DNA of 64,000 bases from Minisyncoccia bacterium (GTDB lineage: Bacteria > Patescibacteriota > Minisyncoccia > UBA6257 > JAAZHW01), in NCBI GenBank assembly GCA_049720475.1, contig JBNASH010000035.1, positions 84,015 to 148,014 of the forward strand. Direction: 5' to 3'. Both the position numbers and the translations under genes were made by a program. The notes under the pieces are model-generated. The model was not told the origin of the DNA, searched no databases, and saw only the letters and a list, made by a program, of their open reading frames with translations. This document shows positions 8,540 to 30,306 of the stretch, piece after piece. Each line of letters opens with the position of its first letter. The first letter of the stretch is position 1.

Positions 8540-8604
8540 AACTTTATTATAATAAATAATTATTGCGAAAATCAAAATTTTGTGATAGAATGAAAAATAA
8601 AAAT

Positions 8605-8739
8605 ATGTCGACCACTTATCAACCTAAAAAAAGAAAAAGAAAGAAAACGCATGGCTTTCTAGTGAGAATGCGAAAACCCGGCGGAAGAAGAGTTATAAAA
8701 AGAAGAAGACAGAAAGGTCGCTATCGCCTGACTGTTTAA
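8605..8739 (+). CDS. rpmH: 50S ribosomal protein L34 (44 aa; not in the ORF track because it is under 60 aa)
   Basis: Hand translation gives [44 protein letters not shown], the L34 signature. It sits immediately upstream of rnpA, the conserved rpmH-rnpA arrangement. Confidence 0.9.
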
Positions 8740-8744
8740 ATTTA

Positions 8745-9080
8745 ATGAAAAAACGGGAAATAATAAGAAGAACTAAAGATTTTGAATTGATTTTTAATAA
8801 TGGACAGAGAGAAAAAAACAAAGATCTTACAATAATTTATTTCCGCCATCCCCAAAATAAAATTAATCGCTTTGCCTTCTTAATTAGCAAAAAAGTTTCA
8901 AAAAAAGCCCATGAGCGCAATTTATTAAAAAGGCGCCTGAAAGCTATTTGTGACGAGCTTAATTTTAAAGAAAAGGGTTATGATTTAGTGTTTATTCCTC
9001 GGCCGTCTTTATTAAAAAAGAAATTCTCCGAATTAAAAGAGATAACCGAAAAATTATTGCGCCAGGCCAGTTTAATTTAA
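8745..9080 (+). CDS. rnpA: RNase P protein component
   Basis: Basic 111-aa protein with conserved position and an RnpA-like core (FAFLISKKVSKKAHERNLLKRRLK). Confidence 0.85.
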   Translation: MKKREIIRRTKDFELIFNNGQREKNKDLTIIYFRHPQNKINRFAFLISKKVSKKAHERNLLKRRLKAICDELNFKEKGYDLVFIPRPSLLKKKFSELKEITEKLLRQASLI

Positions 9081-9083
9081 TTT

Positions 9084-9305
9084 ATGAAGTATTTTTTCTT
9101 GGGTTTAATAAAAATTTATCGAATTCTATTATCGCCTCAAACAGGCGTATTGAAAAATTTCTATTTTTTACCAGTTCATTGCCGTTTTGAGCACGAAGAA
9201 TCTTGCTCTCTCTTTACTTATAACGCCATCAACAAGTACGGCTTAATTAAAGGTCTAAAAATGGGACTAATCAGGTTTTGTCGATGTAGTGGGTTTATTA
9301 AATAA
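9084..9305 (+). CDS. yidD: membrane protein insertion efficiency factor YidD
   Basis: 73 aa, with Cys-containing motifs (CRFEHEESC ... FCRCSG) and a position between rnpA and yidC. Confidence 0.8.
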   Translation: MKYFFLGLIKIYRILLSPQTGVLKNFYFLPVHCRFEHEESCSLFTYNAINKYGLIKGLKMGLIRFCRCSGFIK

Positions 9306-9307
9306 AT

Positions 9308-10066
9308 ATGGGCAATTTTTTTCATATTGTTTTTATTCAACCAATATTCAATCTTTTAATCGCCATTTATAATTTTTTGCCAATCCACGATATTGGAATA
9401 GCTGCTATTGTTTTGACTATTATTATCAGAATAATCTTAGCTCCAATTTTTTACAAAAGTAGTAAGCAGCAATTATTAATGAACAAACTTCAACCCGAAT
9501 TGCAAAAGATTCAAAAGGAATACAAAGACGATAAAGAAAAATTGGCTAAAGCCCAAATGGAACTTTTTAAAAAACATAGGGTCAATCCTTTTGGTAATTG
9601 TTTTTTAATTTTACTTCAACTTCCTATTATGATTGCTGTTTATCGGGTTTTTTTAATGGGTTTTGCTAGCGAAACGCTAATGAATAATCTTTATTCATTT
9701 ATAAAAATGCCAGAAAACTTCAACCCTCTCTTTTTGGGAATTGTTAATTTAAACAAAGCCAATATTTTCATTACCATTATCAGCGCTGTGTTGCAATTTA
9801 TTTCCACTAAAATGGTCATGCCCCAGACTCGCCCATCAAAACAAACCGATATTTTAGAGAGCCCAGCCCAAAAAATGACTGAAGTTCTCCAAAAACAAAT
9901 GCTTTTTATTGGCCCAATTACCACTTTTATTATTTTAGTTAGCTTGCCATCGATTTTAGGAATTTATTGGTCTACAACAACAGTTATTAGCATCATTCAG
10001 CAAAAAATTCTTAAAAAGAAATTATCGGTCGAAAAAAACATTTCAAACAATGGAGCAAATAATTAA
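9308..10066 (+). CDS. yidC: membrane protein insertase YidC/Oxa1 (short form)
   Basis: Five hydrophobic segments and conserved operon position. Confidence 0.85.
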   Translation: MGNFFHIVFIQPIFNLLIAIYNFLPIHDIGIAAIVLTIIIRIILAPIFYKSSKQQLLMNKLQPELQKIQKEYKDDKEKLAKAQMELFKKHRVNPFGNCFLILLQLPIMIAVYRVFLMGFASETLMNNLYSFIKMPENFNPLFLGIVNLNKANIFITIISAVLQFISTKMVMPQTRPSKQTDILESPAQKMTEVLQKQMLFIGPITTFIILVSLPSILGIYWSTTTVISIIQQKILKKKLSVEKNISNNGANN

Positions 10067-10484
10067 AACTTTATTATCATTTTTTAATATTGATGATGCT
10101 GAAATTGAAATCAATGACATTGATGAAAATTTATTAAATATTAATATCAAAACAGAAAATGGGAAAACCCTGATTGGCCCCCATGGCAATACTTTAAAAG
10201 ATTTGGAATTAATACTGAGATTATTGGCCTCAAAAAATAATATAAATAAGAAAGTAATTCTTGATATCAATGGCTATCGAAAATTCCGCGAAGAACAATT
10301 GAAAAAATTAGCCAAAGAAACCGCTCATAAAGTAATGATTACCAAAAATCCAATTAAATTACCACCAATGAATGCTTATGAAAGAAGAATAATCCATATG
10401 GAATTAGCCATTAATCCTAATGTTACCACTGAAAGTGTTGGAGAAGAGCCCGAACGATGTTTAATAGTAAAACCTTACCCATAA
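10050..10484 (+). CDS. jag: Jag/KhpB-like RNA-binding protein (KH + R3H)
   Basis: C-terminal R3H motif (PMNAYERRIIHMELA), in the position after yidC. Confidence 0.8.
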   Translation: MEQIIKTLLSFFNIDDAEIEINDIDENLLNINIKTENGKTLIGPHGNTLKDLELILRLLASKNNINKKVILDINGYRKFREEQLKKLAKETAHKVMITKNPIKLPPMNAYERRIIHMELAINPNVTTESVGEEPERCLIVKPYP

Positions 10485-10496
10485 TCTCCTAAAATT

Positions 10497-10530
10497 AAAT
10501 ACCCGCTTCTTGCGGGTATTTAATTTTAAA
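10497..10530. terminator. bidirectional intrinsic terminator (ACCCGC-ttctt-GCGGGT + T-run)
   Basis: Seen directly in the sequence. Confidence 0.6.
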
Positions 10531-10567: not shown

Positions 10568-11869
10568 TTAAGGCGTAACTTTTGGAATGGCTGTCGGTGT
10601 AATCGATGGTGTTGGTGAATTCGTTTGTTCAGAAATTGGTGGATTTAAACTATAAAGCGTTTTTGTTTTTTCATCGTAGAAGAAAAGGGTTTTATCATCT
10701 TTGCTTATTTTTATATCAGTGATTTGGAAAGTATTGTTATTTAATAATTGCGCCTCCATTGTTTCCAAATTAATCTGATAAAGCATTTCGTCAATTGACA
10801 CTACTCCCATATAATAAGCATCGGGCCAAACACCAGAAAAAACCGGATTAACAAAAATACTGCAGTAAAGAATGGGTGAAGAATGGGCAAAAACACATTT
10901 CTCCGGCAGAGTAATATTAGGAAAATCTGCCAAAACATAACCATCTTTATTAATTAATTGTAATTTTGGACTCACTCCATTAGCACTGGTAGTGAAGAGT
11001 AAACCGTATTGTCCCTTATCATCCCACTTTAAAATTAAACCGTAACCACTCACAAAAGGACTAAATATTTTATTTTTTAAATCAAATTTCAAAACAGTTG
11101 TCTCGCTTAAGCCACTGGGTTTTTGCGTAATATAAGCGGTCGTGGTGGTTGGCCAGAGTAAATTAATATCACTTGCCGCTTTAAAATCCATTAAAATTTT
11201 CCGATTGGCTAAATTTTTATCTAACTGGGCTAAATAGTTTGTTTCCTTAAAATTCTCTTGGTAATAAAGTGGGCTATCAGAATAATAGTAAAGTAAGTTT
11301 TCGCCATCAGGGGACCAAGCAGCAGTTTTAATATAAAGGTCCAAATTTTTAACTTCGCGCGTTTGAATATCTAAAATGCTAAAAGATGGTTTAGTTGCAC
11401 CTTCTGCCACATATTTAATTAAAATTTTATCTTTTGCTGATGGTTGAACAGATAAAACGTTGTTAAAATTAACGCCCAAATCTCTTTTTTCTTCTTTAAT
11501 CTGATTCTGGGAAAAATCAATTTCAAATAATCCTTCTTTGGTTAGATATTGCAACGTTGAAGTCCCACTCTGCCAAAAAGCCAAAATTTCTTTATTAATT
11601 AAGTTCCGCAAAATTGGCTGCTGTTTAATATTGGTAGCGGAAGTACCAGAAGTTTGCTCTGGCAAAAATGGGGTGGCAGTAATTGTAGGCAAGCCAACGC
11701 CTCCGCCTTCTTGCTGTATTTCCTCTCCAATTTGACTCGCTGGTTTTAAATAAAACCAGTAAAAAACAAAGGCAATAATACCTAAGATAAGAAGAATTAA
11801 AATTGTAGTTAAAATCATTTTTTTCATATGTTTATTCTGGTAATTTAATCGCCTACTGACTTCTGACAA
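10568..11869 (-). CDS. secreted/anchored beta-propeller (TolB/WD40-like repeat) protein with Pro/Thr-rich C-terminus
   Basis: N-terminal TM/signal. Repeated short beta-strand units (e.g. AAWSPDGENLLYYYSD). C-terminal TNSPTPSITPTAIPKVTP. Confidence 0.5.
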   Translation of the reverse strand: MSEVSRRLNYQNKHMKKMILTTILILLILGIIAFVFYWFYLKPASQIGEEIQQEGGGVGLPTITATPFLPEQTSGTSATNIKQQPILRNLINKEILAFWQSGTSTLQYLTKEGLFEIDFSQNQIKEEKRDLGVNFNNVLSVQPSAKDKILIKYVAEGATKPSFSILDIQTREVKNLDLYIKTAAWSPDGENLLYYYSDSPLYYQENFKETNYLAQLDKNLANRKILMDFKAASDINLLWPTTTTAYITQKPSGLSETTVLKFDLKNKIFSPFVSGYGLILKWDDKGQYGLLFTTSANGVSPKLQLINKDGYVLADFPNITLPEKCVFAHSSPILYCSIFVNPVFSGVWPDAYYMGVVSIDEMLYQINLETMEAQLLNNNTFQITDIKISKDDKTLFFYDEKTKTLYSLNPPISEQTNSPTPSITPTAIPKVTP

Positions 11870-12483
11870 ACTGAATATAATTTATTACATACTTCTATAC
11901 ATTTAGATGATAGATCCGAACTAACTTTGCTACAAGCGTCCCTAATACAACTTTCTCTCAGCTTGGACAGGTTTTCTTGAATTTTTTTATCTTCTTCTTC
12001 CTTTAATTGTTTATCGCTTAATTTTGGTTGAATTCCTGGTAAATTTAATTTTACTAAATCAGGGTTAATGGTTCTTAAAATCAAAACCGATCCGAGCAGT
12101 AAAACCAAACCAATAATCGCATCTTTAATTTGCTCACGCGCTTCTTTTTGTTTTGAAGTATTATCAGCGCTTGTTGCATATTGGATACCCGCAATAGTAA
12201 TTTGAATGATGACCGCAATTACGCCCGCATAAACTGCTAACTTATACAATCCAGAAAGATAGTCAGCCGGAGTTGAAGGACAACTGGGCAAAAATGGTTC
12301 TAGAGAAATTTCCATACAGCGCGAACCACCAAACCAATCTTCCGAAGTAGAAGCACTTGTATTGGTAGAAGCTGCATTACTAACTGTCTGGGGAGCGACT
12401 TGAACAGCCTGTTGAGCTAAAGCCACATTACTTAAAACAATGAACAAGAAAGTAAATAAAATATAGGGGTTTATTTTTTTCAT
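11845..12483 (-). CDS. VirB2/TrbC-like pilin candidate (signal peptide + two hydrophobic helices)
   Basis: Signal peptide ending ALAQQA. Two TM helices (LYKLAVYAGVIAVIIQITIAGIQYA and AIIGLVLLLGSVLIL) separated by a short polar loop, the T4SS pilin topology. It is adjacent to the VirB4-like gene. Confidence 0.35.
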   Translation of the reverse strand: MKKINPYILFTFLFIVLSNVALAQQAVQVAPQTVSNAASTNTSASTSEDWFGGSRCMEISLEPFLPSCPSTPADYLSGLYKLAVYAGVIAVIIQITIAGIQYATSADNTSKQKEAREQIKDAIIGLVLLLGSVLILRTINPDLVKLNLPGIQPKLSDKQLKEEEDKKIQENLSKLRESCIRDACSKVSSDLSSKCIEVCNKLYSVCQKSVGD

Positions 12484-13202
12484 TTTAAATTAATATTTAT
12501 ACTCGCGCTTGCTCTTATAATAATATCTCTTAAATCTTCAATGGTTAATTGAATTGAATAGTTTTTCTCTCCTTGCTCGGCTTTAGGCAGTATCAATATT
12601 CGCTCGTTATCTAAATCTGACACTCTTTCATTATTAATCCGCCACATATAATGCAATTGATTTGGATCATCACCGCCAAAGAAAAATGGCACAGCCTCAA
12701 GTTGTAATAAATCCCCAGTTGTTGAATATTGACCTTGAAGTATTTCTTTCTCTCCTAAAACTCTAAAGAAAATGGCTGGTTGCGCTAAATTAATTGTTAT
12801 TGTTTTTTCAATCGGCTGACTTAAAACTGAAGTTAAAATTGAAACTTTTACAGTATAAGCGGTTTTATCAAAATCTTTTAGACGAAATCTAATTGATTTT
12901 AGACCCTGTCCTTCTCCTATTAAATTATCATTTACATACCATCGATATGTCCATTGATCAGAATTCAAATAACCTCCACTTTTTGAAGAATAGATGAATG
13001 GTTGAACTGATGTTTTAATAATCGCAAAGCGAGCTGGCAACGCCTTTCCTTGATATTCAACCGGAACCATTCCATCACTTTCCCAAGTTAAATAAATAAA
13101 GTTTTCGGGGGTTTTTGAAGATTGCGCAAAAGCAAAACTTCCCCCTATCATTAAGAGTGCCAACGCTAATAAAATTGAATTTTTTTGTTTATTGTTCTTC
13201 AT
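12480..13202 (-). CDS. secreted hypothetical protein (signal peptide)
   Basis: MKNNKQKNSILLALALLMIGGSFAFAQ signal. ATGA start/stop overlap with its neighbour. Confidence 0.5.
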   Translation of the reverse strand: MKNNKQKNSILLALALLMIGGSFAFAQSSKTPENFIYLTWESDGMVPVEYQGKALPARFAIIKTSVQPFIYSSKSGGYLNSDQWTYRWYVNDNLIGEGQGLKSIRFRLKDFDKTAYTVKVSILTSVLSQPIEKTITINLAQPAIFFRVLGEKEILQGQYSTTGDLLQLEAVPFFFGGDDPNQLHYMWRINNERVSDLDNERILILPKAEQGEKNYSIQLTIEDLRDIIIRASASININLK

Positions 13203-13683
13203 TTTTTTGCGAACTAAGATTATTCGCCGTCTCTAATGCCTTGCCCGCTGCCGCTAATTCAGGTTTTATTTTCCCAGCGGCTTGTAATCCTTTTGCCGCC
13301 ATCTTTAATTTTTCCGGATGTTTTTGTTGGAGATATAAAAAGACGATTGCGGCAGTTTTTGTAGGTAAAACTCCAACAAAAGGGATTAAATCAACGGCAC
13401 TAGCCAACAACATAAATTCTCCTCGCAACCCCTTCATAAACAACCATAAAGTCAACGAACCACCACACAAAATATTTACCGCCCAACTAATAATTGTCCC
13501 AAATCCTGTTAACTGGAGCGCATCAACCAAATCTGATAAAACAGCAGCTGGCAATGGCCACATAAAGAATTCAATTGCAGAAATTTTCGGACCTGGAGGC
13601 GATTCATCAATTTCCTCTTCAGCTGACATTGTCCCTTCTTCCTCTTCTTGATTTAATTGTAAATCTTCATCTTCATAGGCCAT
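13189..13683 (-). CDS. polytopic membrane protein with an acidic N-terminus (T4SS-cluster component)
   Basis: Acidic cytoplasmic N-terminus followed by 3-4 hydrophobic helices. Confidence 0.45.
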   Translation of the reverse strand: MAYEDEDLQLNQEEEEGTMSAEEEIDESPPGPKISAIEFFMWPLPAAVLSDLVDALQLTGFGTIISWAVNILCGGSLTLWLFMKGLRGEFMLLASAVDLIPFVGVLPTKTAAIVFLYLQQKHPEKLKMAAKGLQAAGKIKPELAAAGKALETANNLSSQKNEEQ

Positions 13684-13721
13684 ATATATTATAAATAAAT
13701 TTTATTAAAAGTTTAAGGTTA

Positions 13722-15521
13722 TTAGGAAAGGCTTTTATCAAACATTTCCTTGGCTTTTTGGATTTGAAGCATTTGAGCAGGATTGGTGGTAATAATTTGA
13801 TCCTCAGTATAAGAAGCAATTACTTTAATAGCCACGTGTTTTGCCCCAGCGAAAAATATCCCTTCTCCCACATTAGCGCTTAAAAGCAGCTGTTTTTCTG
13901 CTTCGGTTAAATTAAATGTTTCAGCCACTACATCAATGGAGGCGGGCGATTGTTTTAAGAGTAATTGCAAAGCGGAGTTTGTAATAATAGGTTTGCCTTG
14001 GGGAGATTTAATAAAATCCTCCACATCTTGGGTAATAGTTGTAACACCCATATGATACTTGCGACAACGTTTGACTAAGCCAAAAAGAAAATCTGCACCA
14101 GCTGGATATTTCATCATCCACCAAGCTTCATCAACAATTAAAATTCTTTTCTTCATTTGGGAACGGATTAAATTCCAAATAAAGTTTAAAACCATATACA
14201 TAGCAATTGGCCGTAGTTCATCTTCTAAATCGCGAAGGGCAAAAACAACTAAACGATTATCAATATTAACATTGGTTGGATTGTTAAGAAAACCAGCAAA
14301 GGTGCCCCGGGTAAACTTAAATAATCGATCTGCCAATTCAGTACCTCCTTCCATATTTTCTAACACAGCCTGCAGATCTTCCATTAACGGCGGGGTTAAT
14401 TTTGTAAAATCGCTTTCGGGTGTAATATCGCGTGAAGCATAAGTTTCAGCAATTGCTCTATCTAAAATCCCAATCTGCTCTGAAGTTAAATCTCCCAACA
14501 TAATTCTTAATAAGCCGGTAAGATTCAAAATGTTTGATTTTAAAACCTCTTCCGGCGTTTCATCTGGCCGCGGAGGCGGTAAATCAAAAGGATTAATGTG
14601 ATGCTCAGAAGTTAAGGAAATATTTATAAACGAGCCACCAACGGTCTCTGCTAAATGTTGATATTCTTTTTCTGGATCAATAATAATTACGTCTGTTCCC
14701 ATCATCAAAGAACGCAAAACTTCTAATTTGCAGAAATAGGATTTACCACTACCTGATTTCGCGAAAATCACCATATTGCCATTTTCCAAAGAAAATCTAT
14801 CAAAAATAATTAAGCTATTATTATGGCGATTAATACCATAAAAAATTCCTTTGTCCGAAGTTAAATCTAGCGAAATAAAAGGGAAAAAGGTGGAAACCGG
14901 TGAAGAATTTAAAGTAGAATGAACATTTAAATAATCTTTATTCAAAGGAAAACAAGACAACAAACCCTCTGACTGTTGGAAAAGCGCAGGTTTTATATAA
15001 ACCATTCTCCCCTCTAAGAAATTAATGATTTTTTGCTCAATGGCTTCTAATTCTTTAAGATTAGAGGCGTAAATAGTTATATAAACTCCTACCTCAAATA
15101 ATTTCTCACGTGCTTGTTGCAAAGCATCACGTAAATTTTCTAAATCTTGATAAGCAGTTTCTAAAATCGGGTCTCTAACCAATCCTTTTTCTTCTCTTTC
15201 CAAAAGTTGGGCTTCCACTTGAGCGACCTTCCTTCTTAATTGTTTCAAAGCCACTCCAGTATCAACGGGATGGATAAAAATGGAAACATCAACTGTTTGG
15301 TCAATGTTTAAAACTGGCGAAAACCAACCAGAAGTAAGATATCGAGGATAAGAAATAATATAGTGGGTTTTAGTATATAAATCGCCCAATCGGACGTAGG
15401 TTGATTCAATTTCTAAAGCCGGCGGTGTTAAAATTTCTCTAATAGTTTGCAACCCCGTCCGGGACGGTTTGGGAATTTTTATTTCTTCATCTTTTTTTTG
15501 TGAAAATGGTAAAATTGGCAT
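13722..15521 (-). CDS. VirB4/TrbE/CagE-family T4SS ATPase, C-terminal 599-aa portion (conserved domain + Walker A/B)
   Basis: Walker A FAKSGSGKS and a Walker B ILIVDEAWWM (the DEAW motif typical of VirB4). An N-terminal YTKTHYIISYP...W region like the CagE_TrbE_VirB domain. Confidence 0.8.
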   Translation of the reverse strand: MPILPFSQKKDEEIKIPKPSRTGLQTIREILTPPALEIESTYVRLGDLYTKTHYIISYPRYLTSGWFSPVLNIDQTVDVSIFIHPVDTGVALKQLRRKVAQVEAQLLEREEKGLVRDPILETAYQDLENLRDALQQAREKLFEVGVYITIYASNLKELEAIEQKIINFLEGRMVYIKPALFQQSEGLLSCFPLNKDYLNVHSTLNSSPVSTFFPFISLDLTSDKGIFYGINRHNNSLIIFDRFSLENGNMVIFAKSGSGKSYFCKLEVLRSLMMGTDVIIIDPEKEYQHLAETVGGSFINISLTSEHHINPFDLPPPRPDETPEEVLKSNILNLTGLLRIMLGDLTSEQIGILDRAIAETYASRDITPESDFTKLTPPLMEDLQAVLENMEGGTELADRLFKFTRGTFAGFLNNPTNVNIDNRLVVFALRDLEDELRPIAMYMVLNFIWNLIRSQMKKRILIVDEAWWMMKYPAGADFLFGLVKRCRKYHMGVTTITQDVEDFIKSPQGKPIITNSALQLLLKQSPASIDVVAETFNLTEAEKQLLLSANVGEGIFFAGAKHVAIKVIASYTEDQIITTNPAQMLQIQKAKEMFDKSLS

Positions 15522-15524
15522 ATT

Positions 15525-16232
15525 TTATTCTATGGTTGGTTCTTCTAATTGTTCTAGCTCGGCTGTAATAGCCAATCCGACCCTTTCTTGTTTTTCAGGA
15601 TTATAAAAATTGTAATACAACTCAATTAATTCCGGGGTTTTAAGACGAATGGCATTCAACCCCATTGCTTTCAAAGCTGAAATAACAGCAGCCACCCGGT
15701 GGTATAGTTGCATTTTGTTATTAACAAATTGCGTCTCTTTATCAACTTCTTGTTGGGGAACGCTGCTCTTTTGTTTACCAAAAGGCAATGGCAACTTTTG
15801 AAAAATTTGTGTTAATGGATTAGCACTACTTGTTGCAGAAATAAGAGAAGGAGAATAAGGTACAACAACATAAAATCTCTTTGTCATAATATTAGTGCTT
15901 TTGACAAGCTCATCTATAAAATTGTAATATTCCTGAATCTGCAATTTTAGAAGCTCATTTTTTTCATTCTTTTCCAACTCTTTAATTTTGTTTAAATAAT
16001 TATCCAGATTAATTTTTCTAGAATGGACAAGGATTTGCAATGGAAAATCTAAAGAATTTAAAAGGCTTTGGTAGGCATTCAAAACTATCTCCTGCTCGGT
16101 TTCTGATAACAAATCAAAGTTAACACCCGACACCATCAAAACGGCTCTTAACGAACCATCTTTTAAAATAACGCAATCTTCTTTGATGGTTTCAATATCT
16201 ATAAATTTTTCAGTGGAGGCAGTACTAATCAT
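15525..16232 (-). CDS. probable N-terminal segment of the same VirB4-like ATPase, in the same frame and separated by one TAA stop + AAT from the downstream ATG
   Basis: Frame arithmetic: both ORF ends are congruent mod 3, with a 3-nt gap. The VILKDGSLRAVLMVSGVNFDLLSETEQEIVLNAYQSLLNSLDFPLQI pattern resembles VirB4/TraE N-termini. Combined length ~835 codons matches a full VirB4. Confidence 0.5.
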   Translation of the reverse strand: MISTASTEKFIDIETIKEDCVILKDGSLRAVLMVSGVNFDLLSETEQEIVLNAYQSLLNSLDFPLQILVHSRKINLDNYLNKIKELEKNEKNELLKLQIQEYYNFIDELVKSTNIMTKRFYVVVPYSPSLISATSSANPLTQIFQKLPLPFGKQKSSVPQQEVDKETQFVNNKMQLYHRVAAVISALKAMGLNAIRLKTPELIELYYNFYNPEKQERVGLAITAELEQLEEPTIE

Positions 16233-16636
16233 AATTGTTTATCTTTTTCTTCTAATTCTTTAGCAATTTTTTCCAATTCTTCGACCGTTAATCTTTTTTT
16301 CTCTTCTTGTTGAGAAACAACTTTTTTCGTTTCTTTTAATAAAGGTTTTGTTGCTTGGGGTTTTTTCCAAGTATATAAGCGCGGATTAATATAAAATTTT
16401 AAGGCATTAATCAAAACTTTGGAAAGGGGTTGTTCATTAACTTTCACAAACGCTAAAGCAATCGAAAATAAAGCAATGACAATACTAACTAAAATCCACA
16501 AACCCTGAGTGAGCACAGAATTCAAAATAAAAATCAAAACCCCGCCCCCTCCCAAAAATAAAAATTGACGAAGGGTTAATGGCCCAACAATTTTACTTTC
16601 TAAATTAATAAATTGTGGTACTTGAGTAGTAGGCAT
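16229..16636 (-). CDS. small two-TM membrane protein (VirB3/PrgI-like candidate)
   Basis: 135 aa. Two adjacent hydrophobic helices near the N-terminus. Immediately upstream of and overlapping (ATGA) the VirB4 N-terminal segment, the usual VirB3 position. Confidence 0.4.
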   Translation of the reverse strand: MPTTQVPQFINLESKIVGPLTLRQFLFLGGGGVLIFILNSVLTQGLWILVSIVIALFSIALAFVKVNEQPLSKVLINALKFYINPRLYTWKKPQATKPLLKETKKVVSQQEEKKRLTVEELEKIAKELEEKDKQL

Positions 16637-16646
16637 ATTTTAATTC

Positions 16647-17906
16647 CTAAAATTTTAACTTTCTTAAATCAATAACATTTTCCGCCGGAATATCTGCTGT
16701 TGTCTCATTTTTAGATTCAACTTTTTCTTCTTGTTTCGGTTCTTCATCTTTCGGTATGAAAGATTTATTTTCTGGAGAAGGCGTCTGTTTGGCTTGTATC
16801 TCTTCTTGTTTCGATTCTAACTTTTCTTCTGGTGGGATTGGGGTTGTTTCTTTCATTTCTGAAGAAACAGCTTCTTTTGGTAGGAACGCTTCAACAATGG
16901 GGATTGGATTGACATCTTGAGGTGTTTGAAACGTTGAAGGCTCTATTTTTTGCTCTGTTATTGGTGGCGGTGGAGCAATTGGCTCACTTGATAATTTAAT
17001 ATCTGGTTCTTGTTTCTTTTCAACAAATTCTCTTTGTTCAAAAATTGGTTTTTCTATAGTACTAATCGGCTTGATTTCTTCTTCATGCTTTAATTCAATT
17101 TCTGAAACCACTTTTTCTTTCGCGGGTTTTACATCTTCAAAGCTAATCCGCCAAGGGGAAGATTCTTCCAAAACTGGTTTAAATTCCTCTTCTTTGCCAA
17201 TAATCATTGGCTCTGTTGGTTTTTGAGTCTCTTGTGTGGGTTTTTTAAATTTGAAAAACGAAAGAAAAGTTCGCTTTGGTTTTTCTTCTTGTTGAGTTGT
17301 TGAGGTTGATTCTTGGATCGGAGGTTGAACAACAGCATCTAATGGCTTGGGTTCTTCTTTTTTGCTAGTCTCTGATAATGGTTGAATTCCGATATTTAAT
17401 GTGCCAAGTGGTTCTTTTTGAGTTTCAATATTTTCTGGTGTTTTAGCTATTGATTCTTCTGTTTCGGCTATTTCCACTTTTTTTAATTCCGGCTGGCTTT
17501 CTTTTTCTAATTTTTCCATTGCTGAAAAACGATGATAAATTTTTTCTAAATCTTCTTTAAAAGGCGAGATGAATTTAGATTCTATTTTTAAAGCAATCTC
17601 CTTCGCCAATACCGGATGAATACCCAAATCTATTAATTTTCCACTTAAAAAAGCAAGGAAAACACTAGGATTTAATTTACCAATAAAAACATCGTGGGTT
17701 GCTCCGACCATCGCATCAAATTGATCATCGTTTAAATTATTTTGTCTTTCCAACTCTAAAAAATAGTCAGCCAATTCATTGCCTAAAAGTATTTTTTGAA
17801 TTTTATCAGGCAACTTATCTAATCTTTGCTGCATTTCTTCTAATTCATTATCCATCTCTTTGCTTTCGTTATTAGAATTTTTTACTGGAATATTTGTATC
17901 ATTCAT
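16647..17906 (-). CDS. acidic, E/K/P-rich low-complexity (probably disordered) protein
   Basis: Composition read directly; no TM segment. Confidence 0.5.
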   Translation of the reverse strand: MNDTNIPVKNSNNESKEMDNELEEMQQRLDKLPDKIQKILLGNELADYFLELERQNNLNDDQFDAMVGATHDVFIGKLNPSVFLAFLSGKLIDLGIHPVLAKEIALKIESKFISPFKEDLEKIYHRFSAMEKLEKESQPELKKVEIAETEESIAKTPENIETQKEPLGTLNIGIQPLSETSKKEEPKPLDAVVQPPIQESTSTTQQEEKPKRTFLSFFKFKKPTQETQKPTEPMIIGKEEEFKPVLEESSPWRISFEDVKPAKEKVVSEIELKHEEEIKPISTIEKPIFEQREFVEKKQEPDIKLSSEPIAPPPPITEQKIEPSTFQTPQDVNPIPIVEAFLPKEAVSSEMKETTPIPPEEKLESKQEEIQAKQTPSPENKSFIPKDEEPKQEEKVESKNETTADIPAENVIDLRKLKF

Positions 17907-17929
17907 ATTTTTATTTTTATTTGTTCTTT

Positions 17930-19843
17930 TTATGTTATTGGCTTTCCACTCGAACTAACCAAAGTTGGTCCTTCTAAATTTTTCTTAAACCACATTCGAC
18001 CATTAAAACCACTTTTTATTTTCTTTCTAAATTCTTTTTTGGTCTCCTCATCCATTGTTTCATAGGCGCGTTTAATTTCTGAAGTTAATTGGTCTAATTT
18101 AGGTAAATCAAGATTTCTCAGCTCGCTCGCTGCCTGTTCAGGATTTGTTTCAAGCTTTAATTGTATAACGCCCGAAAGAACAATAGGATCTTTAATTTTA
18201 TCCAGTTTGATACTCTCAACTTCTATATCGGCTTTTCTAATAGCTTTAATCACTTCCTCGGACTTACCAGTTTTAACCGCTGATTGAACATCAGGATGCC
18301 ACTCGGGATGATCTTTAATGATTTTCTTATAATCTTCTTTACTATATTTGCTTAACAAAGGCAAGGCTTTATCTTTATTCGAATCATCAATCCCGCCTTT
18401 TTTAGCTAAAACAGCAAACATCGCCGCTCTTTCTTCAGGTATTAAAGCAGAATTGGCCATTTGTTTTAACTGCTCTACACTCACATTTTCATATTTCTTT
18501 ACTCTATTACTCCATTCCTTATTCTTAACCTCCTCGGCTTTGCGAGAAACATAACGACTAGCCATACCCAAACCGGTAAGACTAATAGCCGCTCTTGCTA
18601 ATTCATTCTTACTAGCCGCCTTCTCTAAACCAGTTGCTGGAACATTGGCCGCTCTTAACGCCCATAAGGAAGCCTTTCCTTTAACAGCTCCTGATGCTTT
18701 CCTTCCTGTTTCTTTGGCAAAATCCAAAGTCTTCTTAGCTATTTCTACACCCATTTTTTCTCCAGCTATTAATCCCGCCACAATAAATCCTGCCACTAAA
18801 AACATCTGCATTACGCTCTGTAAATTGTACATTACAGAACTCATACCACCCGCTGTGAGTGTCCCTGGAATATGCAATTGCTTAACATGCGAAGCTGTTT
18901 CAAGAGCCAAATAAACGAAAAATCCCATTACTGGTGCTACAAAACACCACTGCAAAAATTTACTCCACCATTGTTTGGATATACCAGCCGGTGTGCCAGG
19001 AATTGAAATTAATGATATTACCCAGGCCAGCGGTGCAAAAATTAATAAAATCCATAACCAGAAAAGACGCACAAACAAAATACCAACCAAAGCACCAAAA
19101 ATTATAATGACTAAAAAGCTAAAAACAATTGTGAAGGCTAACTTTGCTATACCCATCAGAGCAGTTTTCTCTTCCGCCCCTACCATTTGCGCTTGTATCC
19201 ATGATGTCCATTCCGCCTCAGTCGAACTAGCTGTTGGCGTAGCAACAACCTGACTTTGCATAAATGTTTGCAACGTCAAAGCATCGGCTAAAGCATTGGT
19301 AAATCTTACCCCGCCCAATCCAGTAGGATCTGCCCCTAGGGAGCCAAAAATAAAATATCTGAAAAACATATTTGAAAAATCAATAATAGCCCCGCCTATC
19401 ATTAAACTAAAATTAATCAAAATTGCCATAATAATCATTTTGACTAACAATCCTTTTGTTTGTCTTGATTGCACTCTTAAAATATAAGAAAAGGCGATAT
19501 AAATTAAAATTACGATAAACAAAATATTTGCAAAATCACGAGCAATTCTCCAACCAGTTTGAACTACAGGCAGAGTAGTAAATGCCGAAGCATTAACTAC
19601 TAAAGCCAAAATTTTTGCTTCTAAAATAATAATTTGGGAAGCAAGAAGAGCAATAAGATGGGCTACCCAACTAAAAATAGAATAGATTGCTGTTGAGGTA
19701 AAATCACCAATACTAAAAAGAGAGAAAGCGTGTGTTTTGAAAATTATGAAAAGATTAATAAACAAACCAAAAATCAACCCTTGAATTAAAGAGATTTTTC
19801 TAAATTTTATTTTTTGAATGATGCTTTTTATTCTTTTAAACAT
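17930..19843 (-). CDS. VirB6/TrbL-like polytopic inner-membrane protein with a hydrophilic C-terminal extension
   Basis: At least 7 hydrophobic helices in the N-terminal ~370 aa, then a ~260-aa charged C-terminal domain, the VirB6-family architecture. Located in the T4SS-like cluster. Confidence 0.5.
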   Translation of the reverse strand: MFKRIKSIIQKIKFRKISLIQGLIFGLFINLFIIFKTHAFSLFSIGDFTSTAIYSIFSWVAHLIALLASQIIILEAKILALVVNASAFTTLPVVQTGWRIARDFANILFIVILIYIAFSYILRVQSRQTKGLLVKMIIMAILINFSLMIGGAIIDFSNMFFRYFIFGSLGADPTGLGGVRFTNALADALTLQTFMQSQVVATPTASSTEAEWTSWIQAQMVGAEEKTALMGIAKLAFTIVFSFLVIIIFGALVGILFVRLFWLWILLIFAPLAWVISLISIPGTPAGISKQWWSKFLQWCFVAPVMGFFVYLALETASHVKQLHIPGTLTAGGMSSVMYNLQSVMQMFLVAGFIVAGLIAGEKMGVEIAKKTLDFAKETGRKASGAVKGKASLWALRAANVPATGLEKAASKNELARAAISLTGLGMASRYVSRKAEEVKNKEWSNRVKKYENVSVEQLKQMANSALIPEERAAMFAVLAKKGGIDDSNKDKALPLLSKYSKEDYKKIIKDHPEWHPDVQSAVKTGKSEEVIKAIRKADIEVESIKLDKIKDPIVLSGVIQLKLETNPEQAASELRNLDLPKLDQLTSEIKRAYETMDEETKKEFRKKIKSGFNGRMWFKKNLEGPTLVSSSGKPIT

Positions 19844-19855
19844 AACCGGTTAATT

Positions 19856-21412
19856 TTAGTATTGTGGTGGTGGTGATGGCTCTCTGCCACCACAATATTT
19901 TTGGCAACTTGTTAAACTAGTAAAATCACCATTAGGATCTAATTCACAAAGTCCCTCAACTTCGTTACAACTATAGCGGTTTTCAGATGGTGGAGGTGAA
20001 GGTGTAATCGAAGGATAACAAACTCGACTACATGAATCATAATCACTATAACTGCCATTGGGATCAGCTACACAAATTTGCAATTCTGTATCGCATTTAA
20101 AACGAAGCGTGGATCCAGTACAAACTGCTTCACAGCTTTCTTTAGAAAAATATGGTCCATTAGCATCAATTTCGCAAACTTTTGATCCGCCATAAGTTTT
20201 ACAGGCATACCGCAAATTAAGCGATGGGCCAGAATCACCCTTTTCTGGCAAAGCCAACAATCCCTTACCATACCACTTACCACCAATTAACAATTCCTTA
20301 GCTGATTTTAACAAACGACTTATTAGTGCCTGAGCAATCATTTCTGAATAACCCTTAAGATCAGCTGAAGTTAGAAAATATGAGTCTGATTTCTCTAATT
20401 GATTGGTTAAAACTTTTGAAGTTAAATCTGATTTGGCTTCGCCCGGAATACTCACTACCTTTTCTACACAGATTTCTTGACCGGTAGCAGGATCTTTTTT
20501 GGTTTTAATACACCACTCTGTTGGTTTATAGCCACTCTGGGTTTTTTTCTCGGCTTCTTGCTGGGATTCAGATAATTCATTCTTTAAAGATTCTTGAGTC
20601 ATTAAATATGCTCCGAAGGCATTATTCCAGGGATAAAAGGATTCTTCAAAAGCAAGCCACCCGCCATTAGAAAAATTATCATAAAAAGATTCGATATTGC
20701 TTACTACCCTTGATAAAGTACAAGTTGGAAAAGGAGGTTTACCAGGCAAGGTTGTCCCAACTCTAACTAAATAACGAAACGGCTCGCACAACTCCGAAAA
20801 AGGTGAATTTTCGATAAATCGACCAAAAGCCTCATCCATCACATCGCCGAAAAATTGTCGCCAATTAGTAACAAACTGTGGATCGCCAGTTGTTCTTCCG
20901 CTAATCCAATCAACTGCGTTAGAAACCAAACGATCCATAAATGTTTTCACGGCAATTCTGAGCAATAATTTTGTCATTTCAGCCATTTTTGCTTTTAATG
21001 TTGCTTTCTTTTTAGCTACCCATTCTTTACACTGCTGGGTAGTATCGGCGCCACCAGTATTAATAATACATTCACCCGAAATAGCCGTCCCACCAATGCC
21101 CAAAAAACTCAACGTACGACCTAACATTTGACAAACTGGATTTAAAACTACGGACAAAGCGGTATTAATCCAGCTTGTTATTTTTTGATAAATACCCGTA
21201 GAACAAACCATCACCTCGCCCCAATATTCGGCTATATTCTCATATACCGCTGGCTCCTGTTCCAAAACCGAATCTAGATCTTTTGGCGAGGGCAAAGGAA
21301 CTTCGATTAAGGTTTCTGTTTGGGCTTTAACTTTTAAAGCATTAACTATGCCTTCCAAATTAAGAAGAAGAACAGCAATTAAAGTGATAATGGCAAAAGT
21401 TTTTTTACTCAT
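19856..21412 (-). CDS. secreted protein with three C-terminal Cys-rich ~30-aa repeats (C-x7-9-C-E/A/L-x-D-x-N-G-x-[YF]-x-[SD]-x3-S-C-x3-C) and a PPP tail
   Basis: Signal peptide MSKKTFAIITLIAVLLLNLEG. The repeats CKTYGGSKVCEIDANGPYFSKESCEAVC, CDTELQICVADPNGSYSDYDSCSRVC and CNEVEGLCELDPNGDFTSLTSCQKYC are read directly. Confidence 0.55.
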   Translation of the reverse strand: MSKKTFAIITLIAVLLLNLEGIVNALKVKAQTETLIEVPLPSPKDLDSVLEQEPAVYENIAEYWGEVMVCSTGIYQKITSWINTALSVVLNPVCQMLGRTLSFLGIGGTAISGECIINTGGADTTQQCKEWVAKKKATLKAKMAEMTKLLLRIAVKTFMDRLVSNAVDWISGRTTGDPQFVTNWRQFFGDVMDEAFGRFIENSPFSELCEPFRYLVRVGTTLPGKPPFPTCTLSRVVSNIESFYDNFSNGGWLAFEESFYPWNNAFGAYLMTQESLKNELSESQQEAEKKTQSGYKPTEWCIKTKKDPATGQEICVEKVVSIPGEAKSDLTSKVLTNQLEKSDSYFLTSADLKGYSEMIAQALISRLLKSAKELLIGGKWYGKGLLALPEKGDSGPSLNLRYACKTYGGSKVCEIDANGPYFSKESCEAVCTGSTLRFKCDTELQICVADPNGSYSDYDSCSRVCYPSITPSPPPSENRYSCNEVEGLCELDPNGDFTSLTSCQKYCGGREPSPPPQY

Positions 21413-22234
21413 TTAAAATTTGAAATAATTAATTGAACCATCGCCCTCCATTTTTTTCATCATGGCCACCATCCATTGTTGATAAGCATTATCCAAATCC
21501 TCTAAAAGTTGACTAGCTACCAAACCGCTTATTGGATCTTTTTGATAATTATAAAGCGCTTTTAAAATTGCTTGCTTTGTGTTTAAAAAATTAATCAAAT
21601 CCAGATGTAAATTAGCATAAGATGAAGGAATGGGTAACTTCTTTAAATCATCAATGGCTAAACTTAAATCATTAATCATATCAACCAAAAAAGTCGGATC
21701 TTCATTGTCCAAAAAACTTTGCAACCTTTCCTGAAAAACATCATCGGTTATCTTATGATCAGCCAATACTTTCATTGCTTCTACAAAATATTTTAAAGAA
21801 GTGAAAGGTGGCTCTTCTTGAGAAATAAATTTTAATTCAGCCAAAGTTGTAACTGGTACATTCTCAAGAAAATAATTAGTACATTTCTTTATCATTTCAT
21901 CACTAAACAATTCTTCATTCGGCACTTCTAACTGGCCGGATGATAAATCATTGTTGGCATTTAAAGAAATAATTTGTTGGGCTAATTCATTGGCCACTTT
22001 TGATGTTAAATTATCTTCTTCTTTAACATCCAGGCTTTCAACATTAGCTGATAATTTTTGCTTTGCTTTTTCTAAAGAAAAAGAAGTAGGCGCATTAATT
22101 TTTCCTGTATCAGTCAATGCGGCTTTACTTTCTTTTATATTTACTGGTTTATTGTTATGTTGAAAAATCAAAAACGAAACAAAAATAGCCAAAAAAACGA
22201 TGCCAATACCCAATTTTAGAGATTTTTTTTCCAT
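21413..22234 (-). CDS. membrane-anchored/secreted hypothetical protein (first gene of the cluster)
   Basis: N-terminal hydrophobic segment LGIGIVFLAIFVSFLIF. Confidence 0.5.
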   Translation of the reverse strand: MEKKSLKLGIGIVFLAIFVSFLIFQHNNKPVNIKESKAALTDTGKINAPTSFSLEKAKQKLSANVESLDVKEEDNLTSKVANELAQQIISLNANNDLSSGQLEVPNEELFSDEMIKKCTNYFLENVPVTTLAELKFISQEEPPFTSLKYFVEAMKVLADHKITDDVFQERLQSFLDNEDPTFLVDMINDLSLAIDDLKKLPIPSSYANLHLDLINFLNTKQAILKALYNYQKDPISGLVASQLLEDLDNAYQQWMVAMMKKMEGDGSINYFKF

Positions 22235-25213: not shown

Positions 25214-26323
25214 TTGTACCGAAAGATTGCGACTGAACTGAAAGTTTTTATTTTCAATTCAAAAAGTCTCTTTTCTTTAAAAGAGCGCTTGTTTTACTTT
25301 AGACAACCTCTTCCCACGGTTGTCTTTTTGCTTATTTTGGGGGCTATTCTAATTATTATTAATTATACTAATGAGAACAAACTTTTATCCTATAAAGAAT
25401 CGGACCGCGGCGTTTTGGGTGGTCCGAATTTGATTATGAAAAATCTGGCTTTAACTAGCAACACTAACCCTGCTGTTTTTAGTCTTGCTGTTAATCAAAA
25501 CATTAATAGAAATGAAGGTCTTGACACTTCTCCTAACCAGCCGGATTCTGAAATTTCTTATCTTATTGACCATAGTAGCTTACAAAATCCCAGCCCAATT
25601 CTCACAAGCATCAGAACAGATAAAAATGGAATTTTAATCTATAGAGTTCAAAAGGGCGATACCCTACTCAGCCTTTCCTCTGAATTTGGAATAAGTTTAG
25701 AAACTATAAAGTGGGCTAATAATTTAAAAAGCGATAGAATTGTTCCAGGCGAAGAACTAATTATTCTTCCTGTATCTGGTGTTTTACATGAAATCAAACC
25801 TGGTGAAACAATAGAACAAATTGCCCAACTTTATTCGGTTTCAACCGATAAAATCGTTGCTTATAATAACTTGACCAATTCTTCTTTAATTCCAGGACAA
25901 AAAATTATTATACCCGATGGTCGAATGCCAAGAACTTATAAAGTTTTCGCTGCTGCTTCTTCTCTTCCCGAATACCCTTATTATTATGTCATTCCTACCA
26001 GTGGATTTAATTGGGGCATTCTTCATAATGTCAACGCTGTTGACATCGCCAACCGCTGCGATACACCAGTTGTAGCCGCCGCCGAAGGATTGGTTGAAAA
26101 AGTAGCCTATGATAGCAGTTATGGCAATTATATAAAAATTCAACATCCCAACAATACTGAAACGCTGTATGCCCACCTTAATTATGTTCAAGTTAAAGAA
26201 GGCGATTATGTTATGCAAGGTCAGTTAATTGGTTTAATGGGCAATACTGGTTATGTTATTGGCTCCCCAGGCTGTCATCTTCATTTCGAAGTCAGAGGCG
26301 CCAAAAATCCTTTTGCCAAATAA
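25214..26323 (+). CDS. LysM-domain peptidoglycan DD-metalloendopeptidase (2x LysM + M23 peptidase); N-terminal start uncertain (TTG in track)
   Basis: Two LysM motifs (YRVQKGDTLLSLSSEFGISLETIKWAN and HEIKPGETIEQIAQLYSVSTDKIVAYN). M23 motifs (HxxxD-like region and GYVIGSPGCHLHFEV). Confidence 0.8.
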   Translation: MYRKIATELKVFIFNSKSLFSLKERLFYFRQPLPTVVFLLILGAILIIINYTNENKLLSYKESDRGVLGGPNLIMKNLALTSNTNPAVFSLAVNQNINRNEGLDTSPNQPDSEISYLIDHSSLQNPSPILTSIRTDKNGILIYRVQKGDTLLSLSSEFGISLETIKWANNLKSDRIVPGEELIILPVSGVLHEIKPGETIEQIAQLYSVSTDKIVAYNNLTNSSLIPGQKIIIPDGRMPRTYKVFAAASSLPEYPYYYVIPTSGFNWGILHNVNAVDIANRCDTPVVAAAEGLVEKVAYDSSYGNYIKIQHPNNTETLYAHLNYVQVKEGDYVMQGQLIGLMGNTGYVIGSPGCHLHFEVRGAKNPFAK

Positions 26324-29474: not shown

Positions 29475-29489
29475 CGACCGAATATTTAG

Positions 29490-29835
29490 TGGAGATGGCG
29501 GGAATCGAACCCGCGTCGGCGAAAAAGTTGATTTTCAAGCTTTCCAGACAATCAGCCGATTTATCTTAAGGGTTAATATTTAAAATCGGCAAAATTATTA
29601 ACCCCCGTCTTTGGTGTTAGGTTGCTTTTCTAGCCAAAGACACCTAGAAAAAGCCGAGCTCGATAATTTGACACCCTTCTGGCCTATCGAGCATCAGCCA
29701 GTCGGATGGGCTTATGCTAAAGCAAAAGCCAAGTTTCTGCTAAAATTGGCAGTTTTTCTTTCTCGCTTTTTTACGAGGTAGCGAACCCTCGGTCTGACTT
29801 GAAAATGCTTTTTCGCCTCGAGGCCAATCATCCCC
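29490..29835 (-). ncRNA. ssrA: tmRNA (ssrA)
   Basis: 5' end GGGGAUGAUUGG... (G3:U70 alanine identity pair) and a 3' tRNA-like end GCGGGUUCGAUUCCCGCCAUCUCCA, near-identical to E. coli ...GCGGGUUCAACUCCCGCCAGCUCCA. A tag-like reading frame ...GCCAAUUUUAGCAGAAACUUGGCUUUUGCUUUAGCAUAA is present. smpB lies immediately downstream. Confidence 0.85.
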
Positions 29836-29847: not shown

Positions 29848-30306
29848 TTAATAATTTTTAAGGTTGCGGGCTATTTCTCTTTCTGTTTCGCGTTTTTTAA
29901 TTATCTCTCTTTTATCGATTTTACGTCTGCTTCTACCAAGTCCTAATTCTACTTTAATTTTATTTTTTTTCAAGTAAACCATAAGAGGAATAAGCAATAA
30001 TCGCTCAGTTTTCATTTTACCAATTAATCTGTTAATTTCTTCTTTGTGAAGGAGTAATTTGCGGCTCCGATCAGGCTGGTAATCAAACGGTGCGTTTTTT
30101 GCTTGCCAGGCAGGAATTTGCGCATTAATTAAATAGATTTCATTGCCATAAATCTGAGCAAAAGAACCATCTAAATTAATGTTTCCGTTTTTAACGGACT
30201 TCACTTCGCATCCCAATAACTGAATCCCCGCTTCAATCCTTTCTAAAATTTCATAATTAAATTCCGCTTTTCGATTTTTAGCTAAAATTTTCATAAAATT
30301 ACTCAC
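29848..30306 (-). CDS. smpB: SsrA-binding protein SmpB
   Basis: 152-aa basic protein with the SmpB fold signature (GIQLLGCEVKSVK, C-terminal basic tail), adjacent to tmRNA. Confidence 0.9.
   Translation of the reverse strand: MSNFMKILAKNRKAEFNYEILERIEAGIQLLGCEVKSVKNGNINLDGSFAQIYGNEIYLINAQIPAWQAKNAPFDYQPDRSRKLLLHKEEINRLIGKMKTERLLLIPLMVYLKKNKIKVELGLGRSRRKIDKREIIKKRETEREIARNLKNY

Follow-up and report, generated by a model that had tools for sequence, protein, structure and literature searches.

Gene Content and Layout of the Cluster

The 64-kb stretch analysed here, hereafter the window (contig JBNASH010000035.1 of the Minisyncoccia bacterium assembly GCA_049720475.1, positions 84,015 to 148,014), harbors a cluster of eleven genes, g1 to g11, which is almost certainly a member of the type IV secretion systems (T4SS) of Patescibacteria. 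A previous inspection of the letters (the sequence-only reading) had described eleven tightly packed, co-directional minus-strand genes, and the listing of open reading frames (ORFs) agreed with it, since exactly eleven ORFs, all co-directional on the minus strand, exactly fill positions 10568-22234 (Table 1). The same reading held that several of these genes were coupled by ATGA overlaps. Such overlaps do exist, but only at the g5/g6 and g9/g10 junctions; g1 and g2 abut as TAAATG, g8 and g9 share an overlap of 14 nt, and the other intergenic gaps measure 3-38 nt. The true start of g11 is probably an ATG at 11827, which would give a protein of 419 aa.

The 3′ end of ksgA lies 31 nt upstream of g1, and ksgA itself overlaps uvrD on the same strand, the co-directional run that includes both genes starting at 25008. 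Because uvrD and ksgA are packed on the same strand directly upstream, the transcription unit may be longer than the eleven genes and include these two. Immediately downstream, rnpA-yidC-jag occupy the opposite strand, and a palindromic hairpin lies between the converging g11 and jag; judged from a pattern match, it is likely a bidirectional terminator at the 3′ end of the operon. With the exception of this hairpin, pattern scans for promoters and terminators remained at or below shuffle expectation, and the operon boundaries were therefore placed from spacing alone.

A scan with g7, limited to one genome per species, recovered 80 species-representative loci, all from Patescibacteria and mostly from Paceibacteria/Parcubacteria by record title, including Azam-, Wolfe-, Kaiser-, Nomura-, Taylor- and Jorgensenbacteria. 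The VirB4 proteins of these loci were 58-85% identical to g7.

Table 1. Features of the cluster and of the rest of the window. The last column gives presence among those related loci in which the flank on the side of the gene was long enough (42 for upstream genes, 50 for downstream genes); the counts of g1, g4 and g8 are upper estimates, as iterated profiles of fast-evolving or low-complexity proteins may drift.
Feature	Coordinates	Strand	Description	Present in loci
g1	21413-22234	-	273 aa; N-terminal membrane anchor and helical extracytoplasmic domain; no known family	36/42
g2	19856-21412	-	518 aa; secreted; ~370-aa N-domain and three C-terminal 4-Cys repeats; candidate adhesin/tip	34/42
g3	17930-19843	-	637 aa; polytopic membrane protein, VirB6-like and extended, with C-terminal helical domain	41/42
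g4	16647-17906	-	419 aa; no transmembrane segment; helical N-domain and disordered E/K/P-rich tail; no known family	40/42
g5	16229-16636	-	135 aa; PrgI/VirB3-like, two transmembrane segments	42/42
g6	15525-16232	-	235 aa; detached VirB4 N-terminal domain, TrsD-like	42/42
g7	13722-15521	-	599 aa; body of the VirB4 ATPase (C-terminal two thirds)	
g8	13189-13683	-	164 aa; small membrane protein; no known family	37/50
g9	12480-13202	-	240 aa; secreted/anchored; repeated beta-rich Ig-like domains	45/50
g10	11845-12483	-	212 aa; VirB2-like T4SS pilin	47/50
g11	10568-11869	-	433 aa from TTG; anchored TolB-like beta-propeller	45/50
Hairpin	10490-10528	.	palindromic, 17-bp stem; between converging g11 and jag; pattern match	
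rpmH(?)-rnpA-yidC-jag	8563-10484	+	genes facing the minus-strand run	
LysM and peptidase M23 protein	25214-26323	+	transcribed away from uvrD; located two genes upstream of g1	
Type IV pilus minor-pilin cluster	56865-58749	-	four small genes, two with the type IV pilin N-methylation motif	
FtsK	50229-52400		canonical, with alpha and gamma domains	
Lamin Tail Domain protein	39356-43558	-	1400 aa; two Lamin Tail Domains, otherwise no family	
NiFe-hydrogenase genes	1-1978	+	genes of a small-subunit-like protein (Oxidored_q6) and of the large subunit, at the edge of the window	
tRNA-Ile	36334-36407	-	anticodon TAT (UAU)	
Transfer-messenger RNA (tmRNA) beside smpB; class A RNase P RNA	29487-29835, 29848-30306, 48982-49386	-	ordinary housekeeping RNAs	

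A VirB4 Motor Encoded by Two Genes

The VirB4-family ATPase announced by the sequence-only reading was recovered as g7, which scored 374.2 bits against the NCBIfam model NF045971 (VirB4-like ATPase of the CD1110 family; cut-off 325) over profile positions 179-734, and matched the Pfam family P-loop_TraG (PF19044) with an E-value of 3e-28. Among the NCBIfam models, CD1110 ranked first, followed by mycoplasma VirB4, TraC-F and VirB4_CagE, the best models being prototypes of the MPF_FATA class. The Walker A (AKSGSGKS, residue 254) and Walker B (DEAW, residue 464) motifs are intact in 78/79 g7 orthologues; neither a loss of the motifs nor pseudogenisation, which would speak against a functioning machine, was seen among the relatives. 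A sequence comparison revealed that g7 is 28% identical to PrgJ of the plasmid pCF10 (E 4e-43) along PrgJ residues 241-773, indicating that g7 is devoid of the first ~200 residues of a normal VirB4.

This missing portion is encoded by g6, the one protein left out of the earlier inventory, which had described the other ten. g6 matched VirB4_plasma at model positions 102-257 (E 1e-14) and VirB4_CagE at positions 4-176 (E 3e-7), both below the cut-offs set for full-length proteins, as well as TrsD/TraD NF041427 with 49.7 bits (E 4e-13), below the 200-bit cut-off. Moreover, g6 and g7 correspond to one ORF of 786-790 aa in 3/79 related loci, remaining separate in all the others, and g6 aligns to residues 8-221 of the fused 790-aa VirB4 of locus L026 with 45% identity (E 5e-58). 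The statements on g6 draw only on NCBIfam, tblastn and BLASTP results. The fused orthologues, together with the N-terminal VirB4 matches of g6, show that VirB4 is split here into g6 and g7, the split form being the rule in this lineage.

Membrane Platform and Pilin

The small protein with two transmembrane (TM) segments that had been assigned to the VirB3 position is g5, and the assignment was confirmed by its match to the Pfam family PrgI (PF12666; 46 bits, cut-off 27, E 8e-12). The proposed VirB6-like protein, g3, presents eight TM-like segments followed by a helical tail of ~250 aa. It has no direct family match of its own; TrbL/VirB6 was found in 4/46 of its orthologues, and its database relatives carry PF04610 or PF19590. 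An AlphaFold model of g3 (predicted local distance difference test score, pLDDT, 70.8) superposes on TrwI/VirB6 of the R388 stalk, and the high-probability Foldseek matches were TrwI/VirB6 chains only. These structural comparisons and the domains of orthologues and relatives, rather than PDB sequence profiles, support the identification of g3 as an extended VirB6. A VirB6-like homologue (P0013), 68% identical, is labelled in NCBI as belonging to a Candidatus Aenigmatarchaeota metagenome-assembled genome, a label that is probably a binning artefact. Some Paceibacteria have been reported to live on archaea.

The pilin-like protein with a signal peptide and two TM segments, also foreseen by the sequence-only reading, corresponds to g10, which matched the Pfam family T4SS_pilin (PF18895) with 34.6 bits (cut-off 26.6). 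In this protein, the signal peptide is followed by a two-TM core (residues 72-140) and by a Cys-rich C-terminal extension of 72 aa. A homologue search with the pilin profile returned 20 close relatives. Among 41 orthologues, 33 matched PF18895 and 6 matched TrbC/VirB2. The extension beyond the pilin core varied from 0 to 1127 aa across 63 loci, typically comprising 100-300 aa, and examples of long pilin ORFs are L046:156-3527, L063:1542-4010 and L075:615-4217. In the same ORF as the pilin, the 41 family members also encoded NlpC/P60 (three members), YkuD (two), VanY (two), SLT (one) and Amidase_5 (one) domains, and CBM_10 was found in 1/41. These pilin-enzyme fusions of relatives suggest how such cells may manage without a separate VirB1. 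A PDB phmmer search with two long pilin orthologues gave no identifying match for their extensions.

Compared with the NCBI protein ACP5IX_00355 (P0075, 259 aa), to which it is otherwise 100% identical, g10 misses an in-frame segment of 47 aa at ~11866. This Cys-rich segment (TIADPEGCF...RECAAY) is kept in ACP5IX_00355 and in relatives with 63-73% identity. The difference lies in the extracellular tail and would correspond either to a strain-level indel, in which case the Cys-rich tail may be variable between strains, or to an assembly collapse. Pilins with such extensions may form pili by polymerisation or may instead serve as carriers anchored in the membrane.

Accessory Proteins

Besides the VirB2-, VirB3-, VirB4- and VirB6-like components, the cluster encodes six proteins, g1, g2, g4, g8, g9 and g11, whose participation in the same apparatus is inferred from their conserved position and predicted topology. 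The sequence-only reading had counted four secreted proteins, among them a beta-propeller and a Cys-repeat protein, and these proved to be g1, g2, g9 and g11, all of which carry N-terminal anchors or signal peptides. In g1, a single TM-like segment spans residues 6-24; no Pfam, NCBIfam or PDB match was found for this protein, and the bacterial TSP3 Ca-binding repeat (PF18884) was found in 13/37 of its orthologues. In g9, the signal or anchor occupies residues 8-26, the family consensus contains repeated Y-x-W-x-x-N/D-G motifs, and the family profile weakly matched the Ig-like domain of Hoc (E 7e-4). The propeller protein g11 has a TM segment at residues 18-36, and its family profile matched TolB structures in the PDB (E 2.8e-7).

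The Cys-repeat protein g2 displays a signal-peptide-like N-terminus and 20 Cys residues, including those of three 4-Cys repeats between residues 404 and 507. The window protein had no match in Pfam, NCBIfam or the PDB, and its ~370-aa N-domain showed no detectable relatives in these searches. An AlphaFold prediction built with 24 homologues was unsuccessful (pLDDT 45.5), and the only Foldseek matches, which were Kunitz-like and not significant, fell on the Cys repeats. In the orthologues, the C-terminus is exchanged for Ig-like, F5/8 type C (discoidin), CHB_HEX_C or Fn3_assoc modules. This association of variable C-terminal modules with a conserved N-domain suggests a host-binding protein, and g2 is thus most likely a host-recognition adhesin or tip, as far as can be judged from sequence. 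That g2 plays the VirB5 role on top of VirB6 would be speculation.

The E/K/P-rich disordered protein noticed earlier is g4, whose tail consists of 45% E+K+P. It contains no TM segment, and its orthologues share a helical N-terminal block of ~100 aa and a C-terminal DPYRE-like motif; neither Pfam nor the PDB provided a match. The family of g8 combines an acidic N-terminus with two to three hydrophobic helices and near-invariant D51, P101 and P107 in its alignment, and Pfam gave no match above noise. Profile searches of PDB sequences gave no match to g1, g2, g3 or g4, and the comparison of ten family alignments against each other by hhalign uncovered no hidden paralogy, g8 being unrelated to PrgI or to the pilin. 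From these features, g8 would be a small polytopic membrane protein and g4 a partly disordered cytoplasmic protein, with g1, g2, g9 and g11 predicted to lie in the envelope or at the surface.

It is tentatively proposed that the six accessory proteins are true machine parts, forming an envelope-spanning and host-recognition module specific to Paceibacteria that would replace the VirB1, VirB5 and VirB8 of other monoderm systems. In this proposal, which we regard as possible but doubtful, the tip adhesin would be g2, its C-terminal binding domains being exchangeable, and the pilin would act as a surface carrier of C-terminal cargo, namely the Cys-rich tail here and NlpC/P60, SLT, VanY or YkuD in relatives. 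If true, the accessory module and the cargo-bearing pilin would constitute an undescribed architecture for breaching the wall of the host cell. The running text of three articles on these systems (PMC12102498, PMC10633639 and PMC12857230), as distinct from their figures and full supplementary tables, does not mention TolB-like, Ig-like or g2-type proteins or pilin-enzyme fusions.

The same surface features may also be read in terms of adhesion only, in which VirB4, VirB6 and VirB3 would assemble a pilin fibre decorated with adhesins and no substrate would transit through the device. Such a function would fit the coexistence of a pilin with binding-type surface folds (the Ig-like and propeller proteins and the lectin-like modules of g2 orthologues), the large external C-terminal extensions of pilin orthologues, and the absence of a coupling ATPase for substrate recruitment. 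However, Patescibacteria already adhere by means of type IV pili, as stated in PMC12102498, and minor pilin genes of this kind are present in the window; moreover, in the solved systems to which g3 was matched, VirB6/DotA-type proteins constitute the base of a channel. A device restricted to adhesion is considered rather unlikely.

Conservation, Absent Components and Descent

The sequence-only reading had named a lack of co-conservation in related genomes as a refutation of its interpretation, but the cluster was collinear across dozens of Paceibacteria species genomes, and none of the outcomes that this reading had listed as refuting it was observed. By tblastn and iterated hidden Markov models (HMMs), the order uvrD-ksgA-g1...g11, followed by jag-yidC-rnpA on the other strand, was kept in nearly every locus with enough flank. 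A rearranged variant without g9 and g11 occurred in four loci. The recurrence of all eleven genes in the same order in relatives indicates that their clustering is more than chance, and the locus defines which unannotated genes accompany the VirB3/4/6/2 core in dozens of species.

Regarding the components that were not recovered, no relaxase, VirD4, VirB8, VirB9, VirB10 or VirB11 was found in the 64-kb window, the sequence-only reading having recognised none of them in the cluster, and no integrase was found in the window either. None of the eleven proteins matched VirB7, VirB9, VirB10 or VirB11 at E <= 1 in Pfam and NCBIfam, and VirB1, VirB5, VirB8 and VirD4 were undetectable in the cluster with the same databases. 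A type IV coupling protein (T4CP; VirD4 or TcpA) was likewise absent from the window, in which only one other ATPase of the FtsK/HerA type was found next to VirB4, namely a canonical FtsK. The earlier reading had recognised no cell-wall hydrolase, but it missed the LysM and peptidase M23 protein, which is encoded on the other strand two genes upstream of g1 and represents a candidate hydrolase of the cell wall and a possible functional substitute for the missing VirB1. M23 homologues were found near the cluster in only 4/80 loci, within the fetched flanks.

The affinities of the motor evoke a Gram-positive integrative and conjugative element (ICE) of the MPF_FATA type, active or remnant, inserted in the chromosome, since the best VirB4 model, CD1110, comes from conjugative transposons of Firmicutes, and plasmids of the pCF10 and pGO1 types include PrgI and TrsD among their components. 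Nevertheless, genes for a relaxase, a T4CP, an integrase, an excisionase or replication were all absent from the 64 kb. The GC content along the window, which is ~33% G+C and dense in housekeeping genes around the cluster, revealed no compositional island, and the tRNA genes of the window are distant from the cluster. Furthermore, dozens of species share these housekeeping flanks although their VirB4 proteins are only ~60% identical, which implies a long vertical descent. The ICE interpretation was rejected on the tests for a relaxase and coupling protein and for a mobile context, and its probability is regarded as close to negligible. The constancy of the same flanks at this level of divergence and the lack of integrase, relaxase and coupling protein genes in the window lead to the conclusion that the locus, to judge from gene order and content, is chromosomal and vertically inherited and not a mobile element. 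For the same reasons, namely the absence of a relaxase and a coupling protein from the window and the fixed position among housekeeping genes, the cluster is most likely not a conjugation system.

Identity and Proposed Function

A T4SS of this kind has been published between 2023 and 2025, and the present locus is a typical member of a kind of machine already known. Quinonero-Coronel et al. (2025) reported VirB4 in 2,417/3,035 Patescibacteria genomes, forming a clade that derives from the conjugation machinery of monoderms and is nested in the MPF_FATA class, with TrsD, PrgI/VirB3, VirB6 and VirB2-like pilins encoded near virB4 and relaxases almost always absent; in Paceibacteria, the same article places the T4SS locus close to dnaA/dnaN, rnpA, ksgA and rpmH (PMC12102498). 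Wang et al. (2023) showed by transposon sequencing that the homologous genes SEML1_0006-0019 of Southlakia epibionticum are essential for epibiotic growth (PMC10633639), and a 2025 review lists the Patescibacteria systems as a new branch of the superfamily (PMC12857230). In the window, PrgI and a TrsD-like protein are encoded beside virB4, with a VirB6-like protein and a PF18895 pilin nearby, on the chromosome, near ksgA and rnpA, and with no relaxase in the 64 kb. It is, therefore, highly probable that the cluster represents a chromosomal Patescibacteria T4SS in the Paceibacteria (Parcubacteria) arrangement, working as a non-conjugative machine for the epibiotic lifestyle, a degree of confidence that mainly reflects its identity. 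The more specific functional interpretation, that of a non-conjugative T4SS for host contact, is given about even weight. The stripped-down VirB2/3/4/6 apparatus of a small-genome monoderm, distinct from classical conjugation, that the sequence-only reading had recognised was correct, but the system had already been published.

By homology or fold, the membrane platform consists of the extended VirB6 (g3), PrgI/VirB3 (g5) and a VirB4 made of two polypeptides (the g6 N-domain and the g7 ATPase), to which a Sec-exported VirB2-like pilin (g10) is added. In the proposed mechanism, VirB4, docked via its detached N-domain and PrgI, would power the extraction of pilins from the membrane and their assembly on the VirB6 base, and the resulting short pilus or conduit would cross the monoderm wall and contact the host cell. 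The machine would probably serve the epibiotic lifestyle, either by exporting proteins to the host upon contact or through uptake from it; the homologous system of S. epibionticum is essential for growth of this kind.

DNA uptake was raised as a possibility in the sequence-only reading. A competence-type T4SS of this sort, similar to the ComB system of Helicobacter or the archaeal Ced system, would bring in DNA from the host or the environment and thereby supply nucleotides or genes that the organism cannot make. DNA import requires neither a relaxase nor a T4CP, T4SS genes co-localise with comF, recG and radA in the class ABY1 according to PMC12102498, and g7 weakly and partially matched CedB (NF041017, E 2.6e-11) and CedD. 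However, the CedB match, with 42.9 bits where the cut-off is 700, was confined to the P-loop region, CedD gave 24 bits against 600, no partner genes for Ced or ComB import were recognised, and no com or rec genes adjoin the cluster. In S. epibionticum, competence needs ComEC and the deletion of comEC is viable, while the T4SS is essential, so that its essential role is not ComEC-dependent uptake, as presented in PMC12857230. A role in DNA uptake is, thus, deemed unlikely here.

Some points weigh against the interpretation as a non-conjugative host-contact machine with its accessory parts. The function is deduced wholly from homology and from one cultivated Saccharibacterium, which belongs to a different class. 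The genome outside the 64-kb window could encode a relaxase or a coupling protein of the VirD4 type, and VirD4 homologues are, in fact, encoded far from virB4 in most Patescibacteria genomes, according to PMC12102498. The membership of the accessory genes comes from synteny alone, and in genomes as compact as these uvrD, ksgA, yidC and rnpA are equally syntenic and lie outside the machine. For g1, g4 and g8, low-complexity sequence may have inflated the number of matches to the iterated HMMs. Finally, the polymerisation of pilin orthologues with bulky extensions into a VirB2-type pilus is not certain.

Patescibacteria, which appear to live on other cells, account for much of the diversity of uncultured bacteria, and the T4SS is among their few near-universal envelope machines, being essential in the one species tested. 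The locus offers a compact eleven-gene example of the Paceibacteria version of this machine and does not define a new kind of system.

Other Features of the Window

The rnpA-yidC-jag genes, possibly preceded by rpmH, face a run of ~48 kb composed almost exclusively of minus-strand genes (10568-58749), and the cumulative GC skew drops steadily from ~8 kb onward. This layout may mark a replication origin region, such as has been proposed for the T4SS loci of Paceibacteria, but dnaA is absent from the 64-kb window. The 1400-aa protein bearing two Lamin Tail Domains is probably a giant surface protein. The NiFe-hydrogenase genes at the window edge are notable given the otherwise minimal metabolism of the organism. 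The tRNA-Ile with the UAU anticodon represents an uncommon bacterial way of reading AUA.

Comparison with Known Systems

The cluster shares VirB2-, VirB3-, VirB4- and VirB6-type parts with the diderm VirB/D4 systems, such as Trw of R388 and VirB of Agrobacterium. In contrast with them, no VirB1, VirB5, VirB7, VirB8, VirB9, VirB10, VirB11 or VirD4 was detectable here, VirB4 is split, and the pilin has a C-terminal extension. Identity with a diderm VirB system was rejected, since the VirB7/9/10 core and VirB11 were not detected in the eleven proteins.

The Prg/Pcf system of the Enterococcus faecalis plasmid pCF10, of the MPF_FATA class, comprises PrgH/VirB6, PrgI/VirB3, PrgJ/VirB4, PrgK/VirB1, PrgL/VirB8 and PcfC/VirD4. 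It resembles the present cluster in its monoderm setting, in lacking a VirB7/9/10 outer-membrane core and in the order of PrgI followed by VirB4. However, pCF10 has a single-chain VirB4 of 796 aa, VirD4, a relaxase with MobC, the PrgK hydrolase, the VirB8-like PrgL and LPXTG adhesins, none of which occurs at this locus, and it has no pilin, whereas a VirB2-like pilin is encoded here. More generally, conjugative T4SS differ from this locus, in which no relaxase or coupling protein is encoded in 64 kb, no integrase was found and the housekeeping flanks are constant. Comparison by hhalign of the accessory families with the single pCF10 sequences from PrgC to PcfA gave nothing, in a test so insensitive that PrgI against PrgI reached only 6.6% probability.

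The T4SS of Mycoplasma ICEs operates in a similar wall-less or monoderm, small-genome setting. g10 weakly matched the pilin-like Mbov_0395 (E 1e-5), and g5, g6 and g7 mapped consecutively on the VirB3-VirB4 model Mbov_0397 (positions 36-122, 102-257 and 292-893), all below the curated cut-offs. The two differ in that the Mycoplasma protein is fused and belongs to a mobile ICE with TraG/VirD4 and a DDE transposase, whereas three genes at a fixed chromosomal locus correspond to it here.

The closest agreement was found with the T4SS of the Patescibacteria clade, which are likewise chromosomal and devoid of a relaxase, have a VirB4 of MPF_FATA affinity with TrsD-like and PrgI genes immediately upstream, an extended VirB6 with a helical (ARM-like) C-domain and a PF18895 pilin, and lie next to ksgA and rnpA. 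Within this clade, the core order VirB6-like / PrgI / TrsD-like / VirB4 is the same as that of SEML1_0011-0008 in S. epibionticum. The latter presents an array of six pilin genes, whereas a single pilin gene occurs here, and neither a lysozyme or peptidase gene directly downstream of virB4 nor an NTF2/VirB8-like gene is found in the present cluster. In their stead, the cluster carries the Paceibacteria-specific g1, g2, g4 and g8, the Ig-like g9 and the TolB-like g11, and it is in these conserved, uncharacterised accessory proteins, together with the pilin extensions, that its residual novelty resides.

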